Program-made: the position numbers and the translations under genes
IMG/VR virus record: IMGVR_UViG_3300030117_006168
Direction: 5' to 3' (one strand)
DNA: 20,000 nucleotides
Origin: an uncultured virus (IMG/VR IMGVR_UViG_3300030117_006168)
Lineage: Duplodnaviria; Heunggongvirae; Uroviricota; Caudoviricetes
Part shown: piece after piece, positions 11,211-15,237 of the stretch
Position numbering within the stretch: the first letter of the stretch is position 1
Layout: each line of letters begins with the position of its first letter
Notes under the pieces: model-generated
The model's database searches: none
What the model was told of the DNA's origin: nothing
Seen by the model: only the letters and a program-made list of their open reading frames with translations

Positions 11211-11430
11211 AACACTACAAAATCATCTTGTTTCTCAAATGGAGAAACATAGAATGAACGCTGAAATTATGATTAGTAATCCTATGGCAATACATGACCA
11301 TACATCATGGACAGAAGGTATAGAAAACGAATTAGCTAAAATGGCTGAGTATCATGATAAACATGAAATGATTTCAAAATTTTTTGATCATCATTTACAA
11401 CACGGACATAAACATCAAAGAGAAAAGTGA
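11188..11430 (+). CDS. Small helical phage protein with His-rich C-terminus
   Basis: RBS-like AGGAG upstream. Overlaps both neighbours. Tail DHHLQHGHKH. Confidence 0.75.
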   Translation: MTREQIVKTLQNHLVSQMEKHRMNAEIMISNPMAIHDHTSWTEGIENELAKMAEYHDKHEMISKFFDHHLQHGHKHQREK

Positions 11431-12710
11431 AAGTATATAAGTTTGACCCAAAAGATGATGTAGAAACACAATGGAAAAAGTGGAGTGAGTCTGACATAGA
11501 ATTTGATAATGTATCAGATGAAGAACTGAAAGAAAACATTGTGAAAGACCTTTCATATGTTTCACAAATGGATGTGAGAGAGTACACACTATATCAAAAA
11601 TATTGTGAAGTGAAACAAAGATACCCAACAATCACAGTAAATGATTTATGGGAGGGTGAACGCCAAGTATTAAAAGATGAGAAACAAAGAAAAGCTTTAG
11701 TAGAAGTAAAGAACAATATTTGGCAACCAAAAACAAATGAAGATTACCTAGAGTTAGAACCTGAAATGATTTACACAGGTAATAAAGAGGGTATGCCTGA
11801 AGTTTGGAATGCCATTAGAACATTTACATCTACAATGAGAAATAACTCTAATATAGGCCGTAATTTAGCTTATATTATTCGTGATAGAAAAACAAAAAAA
11901 TATCTAGGTGTCATCTGTATTACAGGTGATTTTATTGATCTTACACCAAGAGATAACTTTATTGGTTGGGATCGTAATTATAAAACAGAAAGTGGTATGT
12001 TAAATCATACAGCAATTGGTTCTACGATTGTACCATTACAACCTCTCGGTTTCAATTATGTTGGCGGTAAACTTCTAGCATTACTTTGTTTATCAGAGGA
12101 AATACAATCTCAATGGAAAAAAAATTATGGTGATAATTTAGTAAGTGTGACAACAACATCACTTTATGGTAAAACAAAAAAAGGTGGTCTATCACAATAT
12201 GATAATTTAAAATATTGGAAACCAATGGGCTTTACAAGCGGTTCTGTTTCATACGAACCAACAAAGAAAACGATATATCAAATTAGACATTGGTTGATGA
12301 AAAATCACCCACGAAAATATTTTGAATGGTATGTTGCCAAAAGACCAAATGGTCAACAATTGAAAAGAGATCATAGGCATAGATCGTATGCTTTCACATA
12401 TAGTAAATTAGGTAATATACCAAAAGAAATAATGAAATCTGATCATGCAAGAGGCGTTTACTTTTGCCCCTTATATGATAAAAGTTGTGCATACTTGAGA
12501 GGTGAAGCCAAGATAGAAGATTTGACAAAAGCATTTGATAATTCTACCGAAGCTTTATCTGAATTGTGGAAATATAAGTATGCAAAACCTAGAATCAAAC
12601 AATTGGTTAAAAAAGGTAGAGATTCAAAAGAAACTCTTTTTTATGATGATTTAATATACAAAACATGGGACGAGGTAAAAACTTCATATTTGCCCCAAAT
12701 TGGTAGATAA
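11427..12710 (+). CDS. DUF4338/DruA-like protein (possibly GNAT-related fold)
   Basis: IGRNLAYIIRD..TKKYLGVI, RDNFIGW, PLGFNYVGGKLLALL, TTTSLYG..SQY and W..MGFTSG match my recollection of DUF4338 motifs. GTGA overlap start. Confidence 0.7.
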   Translation: MKVYKFDPKDDVETQWKKWSESDIEFDNVSDEELKENIVKDLSYVSQMDVREYTLYQKYCEVKQRYPTITVNDLWEGERQVLKDEKQRKALVEVKNNIWQPKTNEDYLELEPEMIYTGNKEGMPEVWNAIRTFTSTMRNNSNIGRNLAYIIRDRKTKKYLGVICITGDFIDLTPRDNFIGWDRNYKTESGMLNHTAIGSTIVPLQPLGFNYVGGKLLALLCLSEEIQSQWKKNYGDNLVSVTTTSLYGKTKKGGLSQYDNLKYWKPMGFTSGSVSYEPTKKTIYQIRHWLMKNHPRKYFEWYVAKRPNGQQLKRDHRHRSYAFTYSKLGNIPKEIMKSDHARGVYFCPLYDKSCAYLRGEAKIEDLTKAFDNSTEALSELWKYKYAKPRIKQLVKKGRDSKETLFYDDLIYKTWDEVKTSYLPQIGR

Positions 12711-12713
12711 CTG

Positions 12714-12722
12714 TGTTATAGT
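12714..12722 (+). promoter_or_regulatory. Possible extended -10 promoter for the tRNA-like RNA
   Basis: TG-T-TATAGT ending 13 nt before the RNA 5' end. No well-spaced -35. Confidence 0.4.
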
Positions 12723-12735
12723 ATTTACAGAATAT

Positions 12736-12801
12736 GCGGTGGGTCGTAAGACAATCAGGCTCCAACCTGTAAGCGTGGTGTAACTCCACGACACCGCTCC
12801 A
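12736..12801 (+). tRNA. Non-canonical tRNA-Gly(TCC)-like RNA, 66 nt, encoded CCA
   Basis: Acceptor GCGGTG/CACCGC + T + CCA. Mini D-arm GTC-GTAA-GAC. Anticodon arm CAGG-CTCCAA-CCTG. T-arm CGTGG-TGTAACT-CCACG. GC-rich island in AT-rich DNA. Confidence 0.8.
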
Positions 12802-12802
12802 A

Positions 12803-12870
12803 TGTTGCAAAAATACAACAAAAATAGTGCTTGACAATTCGGGTTGGTGCTGATAGGATGGTATCATAAA
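12803..12870 (+). promoter_or_regulatory. Early sigma70-type promoter, copy 1, with upstream palindrome
   Basis: TGTTG-CAAAAATA-CAACA (12803-12820), then TTGACA (12831-12836), 17 nt, TAGGAT (12854-12859) with TGn. Confidence 0.85.
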
Positions 12871-12891
12871 GTAAATTATTTGGGAGTTTTA

Positions 12892-15237
12892 ATGTCAATA
12901 GTAGAACAAAAATCACAACTAGCAAAATTACTTGCTACAGAAAATGTTACTGTACAACATAAAAAAGTTGATACAGCGTCTTTCAATCCTATGACAAGAG
13001 TTCTTACTTGCCCTATCTGGAAAGATATGAGTCCAGAGCTTTATGATTTATTAATGAGTCATGAAGTTGGCCATGCTTTAAATACTCCAGCAGATGGCTG
13101 GCATGGCGCTGTATCTAATAAAGGCAAAAACTACAAAGGTTTTCTTAATGTTATTGAAGATGCTCGCATTGAGAAAAAAATCAAAAGAAAATATCCAGGT
13201 CTTGTAAAATCTTATGTTAAAGGTTTTAATGAGATTATGGGTATGAATCTATTTGGTATTCAAGATGTTGAAGAAATAAATGAATTACCTTTTATTGATA
13301 GAATCAATATTTTTACAAAGAGTTCTTACTCTATGCCTATTCAATTCTCTAATGAAGAGTTATCAATTATTGAAGAGATTAAAAATCTTGAATCATGGAA
13401 TGATGTTGTTGCTATGACTGATAGATTATGGGATCAGGCAGTAGAAGAAGAGAAAGAAACTTTTACTATGTTTGATTATACGGACGTAGAAGAAGATAAT
13501 GATGAAGATTCAGCTGGCAAAACTGAGCAAACTGGTTTTTTCCCTAATGATGATTCGGATAATGAGAATGAATCTGAAGAATCAGTAAGTCAATCTGAAG
13601 CTACAGAGGAAGATACTGAAGAAAATGAAGAAACTGAATCTGGTGCTGATGATTCAGCTGCTGAAGATGGCGGTGATGATGAAAAAGACTCAAATGTAGA
13701 TGCTGAGTCAGCTCATGGCGATGTTGATGGTGACGAAGTTTACGAACCATCTTGTGAAACTGATGAGTCATTTAGAAATAATGAAAATAAATTACTTGAT
13801 GGTAAAGCTGTAGAAAATGTTTATATTAATATACCAAAGCCAATATTAGATAAAATCTTAGAAGATCCTAAAGTAGTCAATAAAAGTATGACAGACCACT
13901 TCAAAGAGTTATCACAACGCAGTTTGATGTACTTTCAAAACCAGACTAATTACAGAACAAATATTGGTCCTGAAGAAGTTAAAAAACTTTTCAATCGTGG
14001 TCATGTTATGAATGAGTTTAAAAAGAAAAATGATCGTTTTATCTCATTGATGGCTAAAGACTTTGAAATGAAAAAAGCTGCCACAAAATATGCCAAGGCT
14101 AGATTATATACTTCTGGTGATATTGATATTAACAAAATTTACAAGTATAAGTTTGATGATCAAATTTTTCGTAAGTTGACAAAATTACCGAAAGGTAAAA
14201 ATCATGGTATGCTTCTTGTATTAGATTTATCTGGTTCTATGGATCGTAACATGGCTGGTTCAATTGAGCAGATTCTTATTCTTACTGCTTTTTGTAAGAA
14301 AGTTCAAATACCATTTAGAGTTTTTGGTTTCACTTCTACACCGCTTAATAGTGATGTAAAAGAATATGGTGATACTCCGACTCCTAAATGGCATTTAGCT
14401 GAGAACACTCTTGATCTTCATGACGATTGGGCGTTAAGAGAATTTATTAATTCAGATATGGGAGCAGCTGCCTATAAAGAGGCTTTTGAGAATTTACTGA
14501 TGGGTAAATCTGCTTGGAGTTATAACAAGCTTCATGTTAATTATCAGAATATTCCAAGAGCATTACATTTAAGTAGCACACCATTGAATGAATCTATCGT
14601 TGCTTTAGGTTCAATTGTACCAGAGTTTAGACAAAAACATAATTTAGATATTGTGAATACTATTTTTGTACATGATGGTGATGCTAATCATACTGGTGGT
14701 TATTATGACTGGGATGAGGAAAAAAATGATTGGCAATTTAATTACTTTGATCGAAATGAAAATGTAATTTTACAAGATATTAAGCTTCGCTGGGCATCAT
14801 TAGCTGTTTATCATGATAGAAATAATTGTATAACTAACGATTTATTAGAATGGTTTAAAGTTAAAACTGGTTCTCAAGTTTTTGGTTTCTTTGTTTCAAC
14901 TAAAATGAGTGATGCAATTAATTATAGATATGTACCGAAAAATGCTCTCAAAGATCGTAAGTTTTATGTTAATTGGGAAATAAAAGAAGAGGCTAAAAAA
15001 CTTGGGAGAAAGCAAAAGTTTTTAGAATCATATAATAGAGGCTTTGATCAGTTTTACATTTTGAATGATAGTAATAAGCTTACTACTGATGGTGAAGAGT
15101 TTGAGTTTGAGGTTGCTGATGAAAACAAGATTAGTACCAGAAGCCTTGCGAGTCAATTCACTAAAATGAATAAATCTAGAGAGGTCAATCGCATACTGGC
15201 AACGAAATTTGTAGAAAAAATTGCGGTAAAGTTGTAA
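12892..15237 (+). CDS. Metallopeptidase-like / acidic linker / VWA domain protein (phage 'CobT-like' partner of a MoxR ATPase)
   Basis: HEVGH (HExxH), NVIEDARIE, a long Asp/Glu-rich linker, MIDAS DLSGSM, TPLNE and VHDG. ATG 12892 follows GGGAG RBS; the ORF-track start at 12844 lies inside the promoter. Confidence 0.88.
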   Translation: MSIVEQKSQLAKLLATENVTVQHKKVDTASFNPMTRVLTCPIWKDMSPELYDLLMSHEVGHALNTPADGWHGAVSNKGKNYKGFLNVIEDARIEKKIKRKYPGLVKSYVKGFNEIMGMNLFGIQDVEEINELPFIDRINIFTKSSYSMPIQFSNEELSIIEEIKNLESWNDVVAMTDRLWDQAVEEEKETFTMFDYTDVEEDNDEDSAGKTEQTGFFPNDDSDNENESEESVSQSEATEEDTEENEETESGADDSAAEDGGDDEKDSNVDAESAHGDVDGDEVYEPSCETDESFRNNENKLLDGKAVENVYINIPKPILDKILEDPKVVNKSMTDHFKELSQRSLMYFQNQTNYRTNIGPEEVKKLFNRGHVMNEFKKKNDRFISLMAKDFEMKKAATKYAKARLYTSGDIDINKIYKYKFDDQIFRKLTKLPKGKNHGMLLVLDLSGSMDRNMAGSIEQILILTAFCKKVQIPFRVFGFTSTPLNSDVKEYGDTPTPKWHLAENTLDLHDDWALREFINSDMGAAAYKEAFENLLMGKSAWSYNKLHVNYQNIPRALHLSSTPLNESIVALGSIVPEFRQKHNLDIVNTIFVHDGDANHTGGYYDWDEEKNDWQFNYFDRNENVILQDIKLRWASLAVYHDRNNCITNDLLEWFKVKTGSQVFGFFVSTKMSDAINYRYVPKNALKDRKFYVNWEIKEEAKKLGRKQKFLESYNRGFDQFYILNDSNKLTTDGEEFEFEVADENKISTRSLASQFTKMNKSREVNRILATKFVEKIAVKL

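Follow-up and report, generated by a model that had tools for sequence, protein, structure and literature searches.

The locus discussed here raises a simple question: why would a marine phage keep a small tRNA-like RNA, apparently stripped of its decoding loop, directly behind a gene of the DUF4338/DruA family? The window, that is the whole stretch of 20,000 nucleotides (nt) that was analysed from the uncultured virus IMGVR_UViG_3300030117_006168, is part of a T4-like marine myovirus genome. On its + strand lies a gene for a DUF4338/DruA-family GNAT protein of 427 amino acids (11427..12710, GTG start, stop codon TAA at 12708-12710), identified by PF14236, PADLOC and an AlphaFold2 model. The stop codon is separated by 25 bases from a 66-nt RNA (12736..12801, + strand) that, judging by its fold, covariation and conservation in relatives, is derived from tRNA-Gly and non-decoding. 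An earlier sequence-only reading had described the same arrangement, a 427-residue gene ending at 12710 and a single tRNA-like element from 12736 outside any tRNA cluster, and this description holds; ARAGORN finds 0 tRNAs in the 20-kb window. The answer put forward here, largely by analogy with known systems, is that the RNA may serve a DNA-acting, Mom/Fem-like transferase as its dedicated carrier of glycine, to which we assign a probability of roughly 0.45.

The minimum-free-energy fold of 12736-12801 is a cloverleaf of -24.0 kcal/mol. It consists of an acceptor helix of 6 base pairs (bp; 12736-12741 with 12792-12797), a D arm of 3 bp (12743-12752), a middle hairpin with a 4-bp stem and a 6-nt loop (12756-12769), a T arm of 5 bp with a 7-nt loop (12774-12790), and an encoded U73-CCA end (12798-12801), all on the + strand. 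The D loop reads GUAA, the T loop UGUAACU, and the middle loop CUCCAA (12760..12765), whose invariant CC stands where a tRNA has anticodon positions 35-36. All four helices of a cloverleaf are found, with an acceptor of 6 (to 7) bp, a T arm of 5 bp and the invariant U73-CCA. Taken alone, the fold energy is only moderately unusual (z = -2.49, with 2 of 200 shuffles equally stable), and it is because the fold is conserved in relatives that it can be regarded as more than chance. Standard tools pass over the element: Rfam at E<=10 gave no tRNA match on 12736-12801, and RF00005 at E<=0.01 gave no match in the nearest record, which contains the same RNA.

Covariation was measured on 25 distinct relatives of the RNA in a model-fitted alignment, which leans towards the fitted structure. 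In this alignment 90.5% of the cells pair, compared to 72.4% in shuffles, both sides have changed in 11 of the 19 pairs, and each of the four helices shows compensatory changes. Covariation scores 0.409, compared with 0.100 in shuffles (0 of 500 shuffles scored as high), and slid controls, where the partners are shifted by 1-3 columns, give 37-55% pairing. On an independent MAFFT alignment, RNAalifold recovers 13 pairs in the helices of the acceptor, D arm and T arm, and 6 of these pairs show compensatory changes. The RNA can be placed on the + strand because its G-U pairs fit that strand only. Invariant in all 25 RNAs are G1 C2 G3 G4, the CC of the middle loop, one A of the T loop and the 3' CCGC-U-CCA. 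In a wider set of 58 distinct RNAs, 45 fold as three-hairpin cloverleaves, each of the 45 with the CC in a middle loop of 3-6 nt (CCCC in 11, CCCA in 10, GUCCA in 5, CUCCAA in 4, others in the remainder). Across relatives the RNA is 63-69 nt long. A pattern scan for the acceptor and T arm was too noisy in AT-rich DNA and was left unused. On the sequence evidence, we regard the RNA as a well-supported family of tRNA-Gly-derived, presumably non-decoding RNAs that standard tRNA finders miss. In some relatives two differing paralogues lie head to tail, 3-6 nt apart, one with a UCCCC-type and the other with a UGUCCAA-type loop (L030 1361-1500; L031/L032/L035 3842-3981; L050 3904-4043; L097 3705-3844; L104 3736-3879; L numbers denote loci compared in this work).

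What the RNA has kept and what it has lost can be compared with the known requirements of glycylation. According to PMC7826273, the determinants of tRNA-Gly are G1-C72, C2-G71 (printed there as G70), U73, C35 and C36. At the acceptor end, G1-C72, C2-G71, G3-C70 and U73 are invariant in 25 of 25 distinct RNAs, and a CC stands at the place of C35-C36 in 45 of 45 three-hairpin folds, though in a loop of just 3-6 nt. Of the features by which tRNA models recognise a canonical tRNA (a 7-bp acceptor among them), those needed for decoding are gone: there is no anticodon loop of 7 nt with its U33, the D loop does not have G18-G19, and T-Psi-C is absent from the T loop. The geometry of a 3-6 nt loop makes the middle hairpin incompatible with a standard anticodon loop. 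The RNA thus looks like the identity set of glycyl-tRNA synthetase (GlyRS) without the decoding loop, and its earlier description as a non-canonical tRNA-Gly-like RNA is borne out. It is not the decoding tRNA-Gly of the phage, since in G009, a complete phage of 214 kb, the RNA adjoins the enzyme gene and canonical tRNA-Gly(UCC) and tRNA-Gly(GCC) are present in a tRNA cluster elsewhere. In phage G005 the RNA, tRNA-Gly(UCC) and tRNA-Gly(GCC) are all found inside one cluster.

Glycyl donors that are set apart from translation are known from staphylococci, where certain tRNA-Gly species are reserved for Fem transferases (PMC7826273). By analogy, the non-proteinogenic tRNA-Gly species of Staphylococcus aureus, donors for FmhB, FemA and FemB, would resemble the RNA of the window in their glycine identity, in the retained GlyRS determinants and in serving a GNAT-fold transferase. 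These tRNAs are, however, full-size, have a normal UCC anticodon loop, can decode and differ mainly in their affinity for EF-Tu, which is set by the first three pairs of the T stem (same source). The RNA discussed here is virus-encoded, with a loop of 3-6 nt, a 3-bp D arm and no T-Psi-C. Intermediate forms between tRNA-Gly and this RNA exist, in the shape of near-canonical tRNA-Gly(UCC) genes beside distant enzyme homologues and of a Gly(ACC) tRNA in the Pelagibacter phage HTVC008M (KC465899.1 91140-91213; L061 341-414). The latter lies between cobS and an S21 gene and is without annotation in the record; PMC7029224 lists this phage with 0 tRNAs. It is the only tRNA-type gene of a phage that carries a 54%-identical enzyme, and it shares with the RNA the GCGG...CCGC-UCCA ends (with the UCCA encoded) and has an odd T loop, AGCGUUA. 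It differs in being 74 nt long with a 7-nt loop, in being called by ARAGORN and by RF00005 (49.5 bits), and in its distance of 3.9 kb from the enzyme gene.

The RNA may also be transcribed by itself. An extended -10-like element read from the sequence, TGtTATAGT (12714..12722, + strand), ends 13 nt before its first base, and 48 of 60 distinct upstream flanks of relatives contain a -10 hexamer, with no more than 1 mismatch, whose end lies 5-13 nt ahead of G1. Among these 48 flanks an extended TGn is found in 21 and a -35 in 16, and this suggests that most copies of the RNA have their own promoter. In metatranscriptome assemblies from two studies, the sole contigs with >=99% identity on a 901-nt stretch are short and have the RNA at their middle (12594-12874, depth 20; 12627-12849, depth 2.4). 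As these data are assemblies and not reads, they give no ends, strand or level, and uncovered parts carry no meaning. Since the contigs show neither ends nor strand, and since DNA carry-over is possible, they are a weak hint of expression.

The protein belongs to its family by several measures. Pfam DruA/DUF4338 (PF14236) matches residues 116-359 with an E-value of 2.1e-17 and 63.6 bits (cut-off 27), PADLOC matches the 427-residue protein to DruA1 at 3.4e-21, and the distant homologues that are linked to an RNA score 31.2-92 bits on PF14236. An exhaustive profile-free search gave 907 protein relatives at E<=1e-3. The AlphaFold2 model, made with 146 relatives as alignment, has a mean predicted local distance difference test (pLDDT) value of 96 and a predicted template modelling (pTM) score of 0.93. 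VIA-align was run with this model against 48,161 representative chains and repeated on Foldseek's top 1000. Here, phage Mu Mom (8bv8_B) comes first, with Z 10.0 and a root-mean-square deviation of 3.9 Å over 172 of 202 residues, covering model residues 105-360. At least 31 representative chains reach Z>=8, and the matches listed (50 rows) are nearly all GNAT-type acyltransferases that align to model residues ~105-371. The GNAT core can be placed at residues ~105-360 (11739..12506, + strand) from the VIA-align span and the invariant columns of a 25-sequence alignment. We conclude that the fold is GNAT because of these structural matches to solved GNATs, in accord with PMC10853773, which calls DUF4338 a GNAT. 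The sequence-only reading had also named the GNAT relation of DUF4338, and it was right.

How close the protein is to Mom in particular is a different matter, and here a number of results weigh against the proposed reading. The lead of Mom in VIA-align lies within the tie margin, with SpeG at Z 9.4 and ordinary acetyltransferases at 9.0-9.3; ordinary GNATs align over ~140-150 residues each. FemA (1lrz_A), at Z 8.2 with 147 residues aligned, is level with generic GNATs. Foldseek against the PDB gives weak GNAT matches, the best with an E-value of 1.5e-2, at probabilities of up to 1.00. At the sequence level, the Mom family PF25680 does not match the window protein at E<=1 (Mu Mom itself scores 253 bits), and hhalign gives a probability of 0.7% against Mu Mom and of 0.1% against a 39-sequence Mom profile. 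Of the structural comparison with Mom, Fem and other GNATs that the sequence-only reading had proposed, the GNAT fold therefore stands; Mom's first place is within a tie, and Fem is mid-rank. Membership of the Mom family, which was also considered, is rejected on the missing PF25680 match and the non-significant hhalign result. The sole piece aligned by hhalign is a 13-column RGVY[FL] stretch, which was not counted. A PDB sequence search with the 25-sequence profile returned one row only, a spurious RNase H at E 0.71. In BFVD, searched by Foldseek, a Mom entry is 18th (E 3.2e-2), and the best matches are the giant-virus proteins A0A3G4ZXG3, A0A5K0UAJ3 and A0A3G4ZRA1 (E 3e-19 to 5e-9), which are full-length structural homologues. 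They come from Faunusvirus, Yasminevirus and Dasosvirus, and two of them are parts of proteins of >1100 amino acids.

Some relatives carry names in the databases that should be read with care. The homologue of Synechococcus phage S-SCSM2R (PQ898602.1 133706-134827; L179 2234-3355) is annotated as 'methylcarbamoylase mom' and that of S-CREM1 as 'iron-binding protein', and both labels are annotation transfers without sequence-level support here. The C-termini of the proteins are conserved by clade, with ...YL(P/K)Q(V/I)GR in the window branch (the window protein itself ends ...YLPQIGR, 12690-12707) and ...(I/L)D(I/L)IR in the cyanophage-type branch. The DNA polymerases that neighbour the enzyme gene in L170 and L173 end ...LEDFF(R/G). 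From its sequence, the conserved tail could be a docking peptide; docking it on the sliding clamp of the phage (17982-18683) gave a score of 0.00, which counts neither for nor against.

As to the target of the enzyme, DNA is favoured from context. The gene sits in replication modules of phages, and a Pfam scan of 25 longer homologues found an N-terminal ParB_N domain in 7 (6 of them above the cut-off), a UDG-superfamily domain in 1 and DUF3102 in 1, the remaining 16 having DruA only, barring one sub-threshold Phosducin row. PMC10853773 mentions a fusion of DUF4338 with DndF as well. It is the ParB_N and UDG fusions, the placement in replication modules and the DndF fusion that make DNA the favoured target.

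On the reading proposed here, a small RNA descended from tRNA-Gly would be transcribed from its own promoter and trimmed to its G1...U73-CCA end, host GlyRS would charge it with glycine, and the charged RNA would stay out of translation. The neighbouring DUF4338 GNAT would then take the glycyl group from the CCA end of the RNA and pass it on, the likeliest acceptor being a base in double-stranded phage DNA, as is the case when Mu Mom acts with host Gly-tRNAGly. A private carrier of this kind would supply the reaction without competing for the decoding tRNA-Gly pool of the host. That RNA and enzyme are functional partners is probable, whereas on the narrower point of the RNA serving as glycyl donor, which is argued by analogy, the odds seem about even. 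One point against the proposal concerns motive: in PMC7029224, restriction-modification (RM) is reported in only one of >100 SAR11 genomes, and for this reason an anti-restriction motive in a SAR11 host is weakened.

There are precedents for several parts of such a system. Mom moves glycine from Gly-tRNAGly to N6 of adenine in double-stranded DNA, followed by an on-base rearrangement, and all tRNA-Gly isoacceptors can serve it, the authors speculating on recognition of the acceptor end (PMC13219725). The use of Gly-tRNAGly by Mom, which the sequence-only reading had named, is thereby confirmed. Residues R111, S124 and R151 are essential to Mom, which also has an HTH-like insertion. Both are phage GNAT-fold enzymes, Mom is the top structural match, and the acceptor end that Mom is speculated to recognise is the invariant part of the RNA described here. 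The two differ in having no detectable sequence relation, in size, the window protein having twice the length of Mom and additional parts at its N and C termini, and in that Mu has no tRNA of its own and the window phage brings a dedicated, shrunken RNA. In a related example, the ssrA genomic islands of Dehalococcoides contain a tRNA-Gly-like 'pseudo-tRNA' embedded in a mom homologue (PMC3146451), so that there too a Mom-type gene on a mobile element is physically tied to a private tRNA-Gly-like gene. In Dehalococcoides, however, the protein is a genuine homologue of Mom, and its coding sequence encloses the 76-bp RNA (same source), whereas in the window the enzyme is a DUF4338 protein and the RNA is a separate and smaller gene, apparently with its own promoter. 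Compared with these precedents, what is new is that the enzyme is DUF4338 and not Mom or Fem, and that the RNA is virus-encoded and reduced far beyond those tRNAs. In the literature that was searched, with supplements outside the search, no description of the RNA or of its link to DUF4338 was found.

The DruA protein of type I Druantia is of the same family according to the hidden Markov models (63.6 bits; PADLOC 3.4e-21), and a defence role might be suspected from this. Type I Druantia is, however, defined by druA together with druB, druC, druD and the helicase gene druE, and the PHROGs annotation, which covers 24 open reading frames (ORFs) of the window, includes no druB-E partners. It contains T4-like replication, recombination and auxiliary genes only, among them a helicase, a gp46/47-type nuclease, a late sigma factor, a sliding clamp, a clamp loader, CobS/'peptidase' and several oxygenases. 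The window gene stands alone in a phage replication region, and the earlier statement that a Druantia context is absent can be upheld for these 24 ORFs. Among cultured phages, Mosig and HTVC008M of Pelagibacter come closest, sharing ~66-67% of their nucleotides with the window in a part of the region.

A competing explanation is that the RNA, or glycyl-tRNA-Gly, is the substrate of the enzyme and not a donor, the GNAT acylating it by means of an acyl-CoA (CoA, coenzyme A). The target could be the glycyl amino group, as for TacT and AtaT, or a base such as the invariant C's, as for TmcA, and the purpose could be the tuning of translation or the making of a signalling or priming RNA. Among 25 full-length relatives the invariant residues include P203, Q205, P206, G208, G213-G214-K215, T243, Y258, W264, G343, W381 and R389; inside the GNAT core they form the loop P203-x-Q205-P206-x-G208-x-N210-x-x-G213-G214-K215 and the stretch T243-T-S-L-Y-G248. 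The Q205-x-x-G208-x-N210...G213-G214-K215 motif lies at the GNAT position that binds the CoA pyrophosphate in acetyltransferases, and because of this loop an acyl-CoA donor is possible, which counts against glycine transfer from the RNA. Ordinary CoA-using GNATs are moreover found within 1 Z unit of Mom, and the linkage between gene and RNA given below applies to a substrate in the same way as to a donor. TacT is cited in PMC13219725 as a GNAT that targets Gly-tRNAGly. We nevertheless consider this explanation unlikely, as the ParB_N and UDG fusions and the replication-module placement point to DNA and not to translation, it is hard to see why a toxin-like acetylase should be given a dedicated target RNA that does not decode, and conservation is focused on the acceptor end and the GlyRS determinants, as is expected of a carrier.

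The case for a partnership of RNA and enzyme, on which the proposed carrier depends, comes from comparing loci. A first viral set held 53 loci related to the protein, 12 of which end inside the gene or 26 nt past it. In the loci holding the 3' flank, the RNA is present in 41 of 41, within ~60 nt of the stop codon in 36 and 0.5-0.8 kb away in 5, where it lies behind an ORF inserted on the other strand. Such opposite-strand inserts between gene and RNA are found at ~3780-4320 in L018/L020/L022/L024 and at ~3780-4540 in L040, and also in L068, L091 and L103. A mobile insert is suggested, as the extra coding stretch of 0.5-0.8 kb on the opposite strand occurs in some relatives only. A second viral set consisted of the best 80 of >600 loci, at 57-95% identity and with some contigs repeating the first set; here the RNA was found in 49 of the 80, and 5 had no flank.

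More distant loci come from metagenome bins (37 loci at 25-55% protein identity), where a Gly-tRNA or Gly-tRNA-like gene adjoins the enzyme gene in 4. In L170 a distance of 14 nt separates the end of a canonical tRNA-Gly(UCC) from the start codon of the enzyme gene. L173 and L169 have a tRNA-like RNA downstream of the enzyme gene, in L173 after one ORF and with a CCCAA loop, in L169 after 48 nt and with a UGUCCAA loop as well as an extended -10 of its own. In L148 genes for tRNA-Ala, -Cys and -Gly(UCC) are found just upstream of the enzyme gene; further upstream of this cluster, in what is a phage-like contig, ARAGORN calls a candidate tmRNA-like gene (1078-1526). A broader covariance model (R2), run over 65 loci, brought up no tRNA-like element besides these four. 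According to PHROGs all four are T4-like, and the genomic slots vary: L170 and L173 have the gene after DNA polymerase, L148 has it after polynucleotide kinase, and in L169 gene and RNA form a + strand insert between the tail-tube and major-head genes on the - strand. A FastTree tree of 132 distinct complete proteins, which has SH-like (Shimodaira-Hasegawa) support only and several long branches, places the RNA-linked cases in three deep branches, namely the window clade, the cyanophage-type L169/L170/L173 and L148.

These counts are not uniformly favourable, and the following weigh against a carrier that goes with the enzyme. Among the best 80 of >600 viral loci, 26 that hold the flank have no RNA within 3 kb, and in 33 of the 37 metagenome-bin loci there is none nearby. 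The linked cases all come from T4-like myoviruses, L170 and L173 encode proteins that share 84% identity, and the tRNA-Gly of L148 is one of a cluster of three tRNAs. Inside the window branch, clades of 16 and 6 proteins are without RNA nearby. In the four cyanophage isolates that were examined, the homologue sits between gp44 and gp62 with no adjacent RNA, and in the Pelagibacter phage Mosig, whose tRNAs are those for Pro, Arg and Leu, the enzyme occurs without the RNA and without a tRNA-Gly. The co-occurrence predicted by the sequence-only reading was hence found in part: adjacency in three deep branches, in 41 of 41 loci and in 49 of the best 80 stands, and a general rule does not, given the 26 viral and 33 bin loci without the RNA. 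In phages without an adjacent RNA a small conserved hairpin, (G)CTGTGCGA-N-TGACGCA or TGCGTCCAGCGCA, occurs in the same intergenic place (L001 4588-4612; L002 4011-4035; in L105/L109/L114/L115 just 3' of the DUF4338 stop). Synechococcus phage S-SSM7 has a lone tRNA-Gly(UCC) (GU071098.1 151563-151633) 3.2 kb downstream of its DUF4338 homologue, distant from its main tRNA cluster at 216.4-216.7 kb.

It could be argued from such cases that the RNA is independent of DUF4338 and that adjacency reflects inherited gene order together with the habit of tRNA genes of sitting between phage operons. The RNA could then mark RNase P/CCA processing, in the manner of the stable RNAs of T4; it could serve as decoy or substitute where host defences cleave or deplete tRNAs; or it could titrate GlyRS as a mimic. 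Four long contigs without an adjacent RNA fit this in part, since the broader model R2 finds a tRNA-like copy 7, 12.6 and 46 kb away in three of them (none in the fourth, which is 36% complete), and in several phages the RNA at such distances of 7-46 kb lies in or near tRNA clusters. Read as relocation of the RNA, the three distant copies would also accord with the carrier. The Gly-like tRNA of HTVC008M, 3.9 kb off and after cobS, the apparent promoter of most RNA copies, and the frequent enzyme genes without the RNA, as in Mosig, are of the same kind. On the other side, adjacency recurs in three deep branches, in different slots and on either side of the gene, always with glycine identity; gene and RNA of L169 together form a two-part insert between structural genes of opposite strand; and three cyanophages without a DUF4338 homologue (E<=1e-3) gave weak R2 hits (21.9-26.5 bits, uninspected) or none, though as a control this is small. 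An RNA independent of the enzyme is in our view improbable.

If the RNA is indeed a glycyl carrier for the DUF4338 enzyme, an activity open to testing could be assigned to the widespread DUF4338 family, which includes DruA of Druantia and has members in cyanophages, pelagiphages and giant viruses, and the recently established principle of Mom, in which a charged tRNA is the donor for modifying DNA, would hold for another enzyme family that is far larger. The virus would have evolved a private, non-decoding aminoacyl carrier cut down to the features that a synthetase needs, and so would provide nature's own test of how little tRNA identity requires. An as yet unknown DNA modification would also be expected in phages that are very abundant in the ocean, with a bearing on sequencing, on restriction-based methods and on the ecology of phages and their hosts. 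Should the link to the enzyme fail, the RNA would still stand as a new and well-supported family of phage RNAs that derive from tRNA and are overlooked by the usual tRNA finders. A bolder extension, which we consider doubtful, is that all DUF4338/DruA proteins (of phages and giant viruses, fused to ParB or UDG, borne on transposons, and DruA of type I Druantia) may be aminoacyl-tRNA-dependent modifiers of nucleic acids. Marine T4-like phages would then have evolved a minimal glycyl carrier of 63-69 nt, the smallest natural GlyRS substrate, with an acceptor/T minihelix and a hairpin presenting CC, that feeds an undescribed glycine-derived DNA hypermodification at the replication fork.

The sequence that follows the RNA gives rise to one more explanation, that the C-rich loop is an antisense seed, like the UCCC loops of staphylococcal regulatory RNAs, which pairs with a Shine-Dalgarno sequence and regulates the downstream gene; the CC is invariant and the window loop CUCCAA could pair with the GGAG in the ribosome-binding site of the next gene, but this is very improbable, as only the CC is kept while the loops vary (CCCC, CCCA, GUCCA, UACCC) and the ribosome-binding sites downstream were not seen to change along with them, the invariant acceptor stem, U73 and CCA are left unexplained, and the RNA is also found far from that downstream gene. 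The gene in question, 'peptidase' phrog_459, is listed at 12844-15237, and its TTG start at 12844 overlaps a promoter-like site, TTGACA-17-TAGGAT (12831..12859, + strand), that appears to belong to this gene as a neighbouring feature outside the proposed system. From the sequence it is likely that the start is instead the ATG at 12892, behind a GGGAG ribosome-binding site. Just 3' of the RNA, an inverted repeat GTTG-N8-CAAC (12804..12819, + strand) was read from the sequence and is kept in relatives, a GTTG-N6-10-CAAC being found at most 90 nt downstream of the RNA in 47 of 64 distinct flanks. The repeat has no U-run and lies directly 5' of the -35 of the next gene; a weak terminator and a protein-binding site are both possibilities for it.

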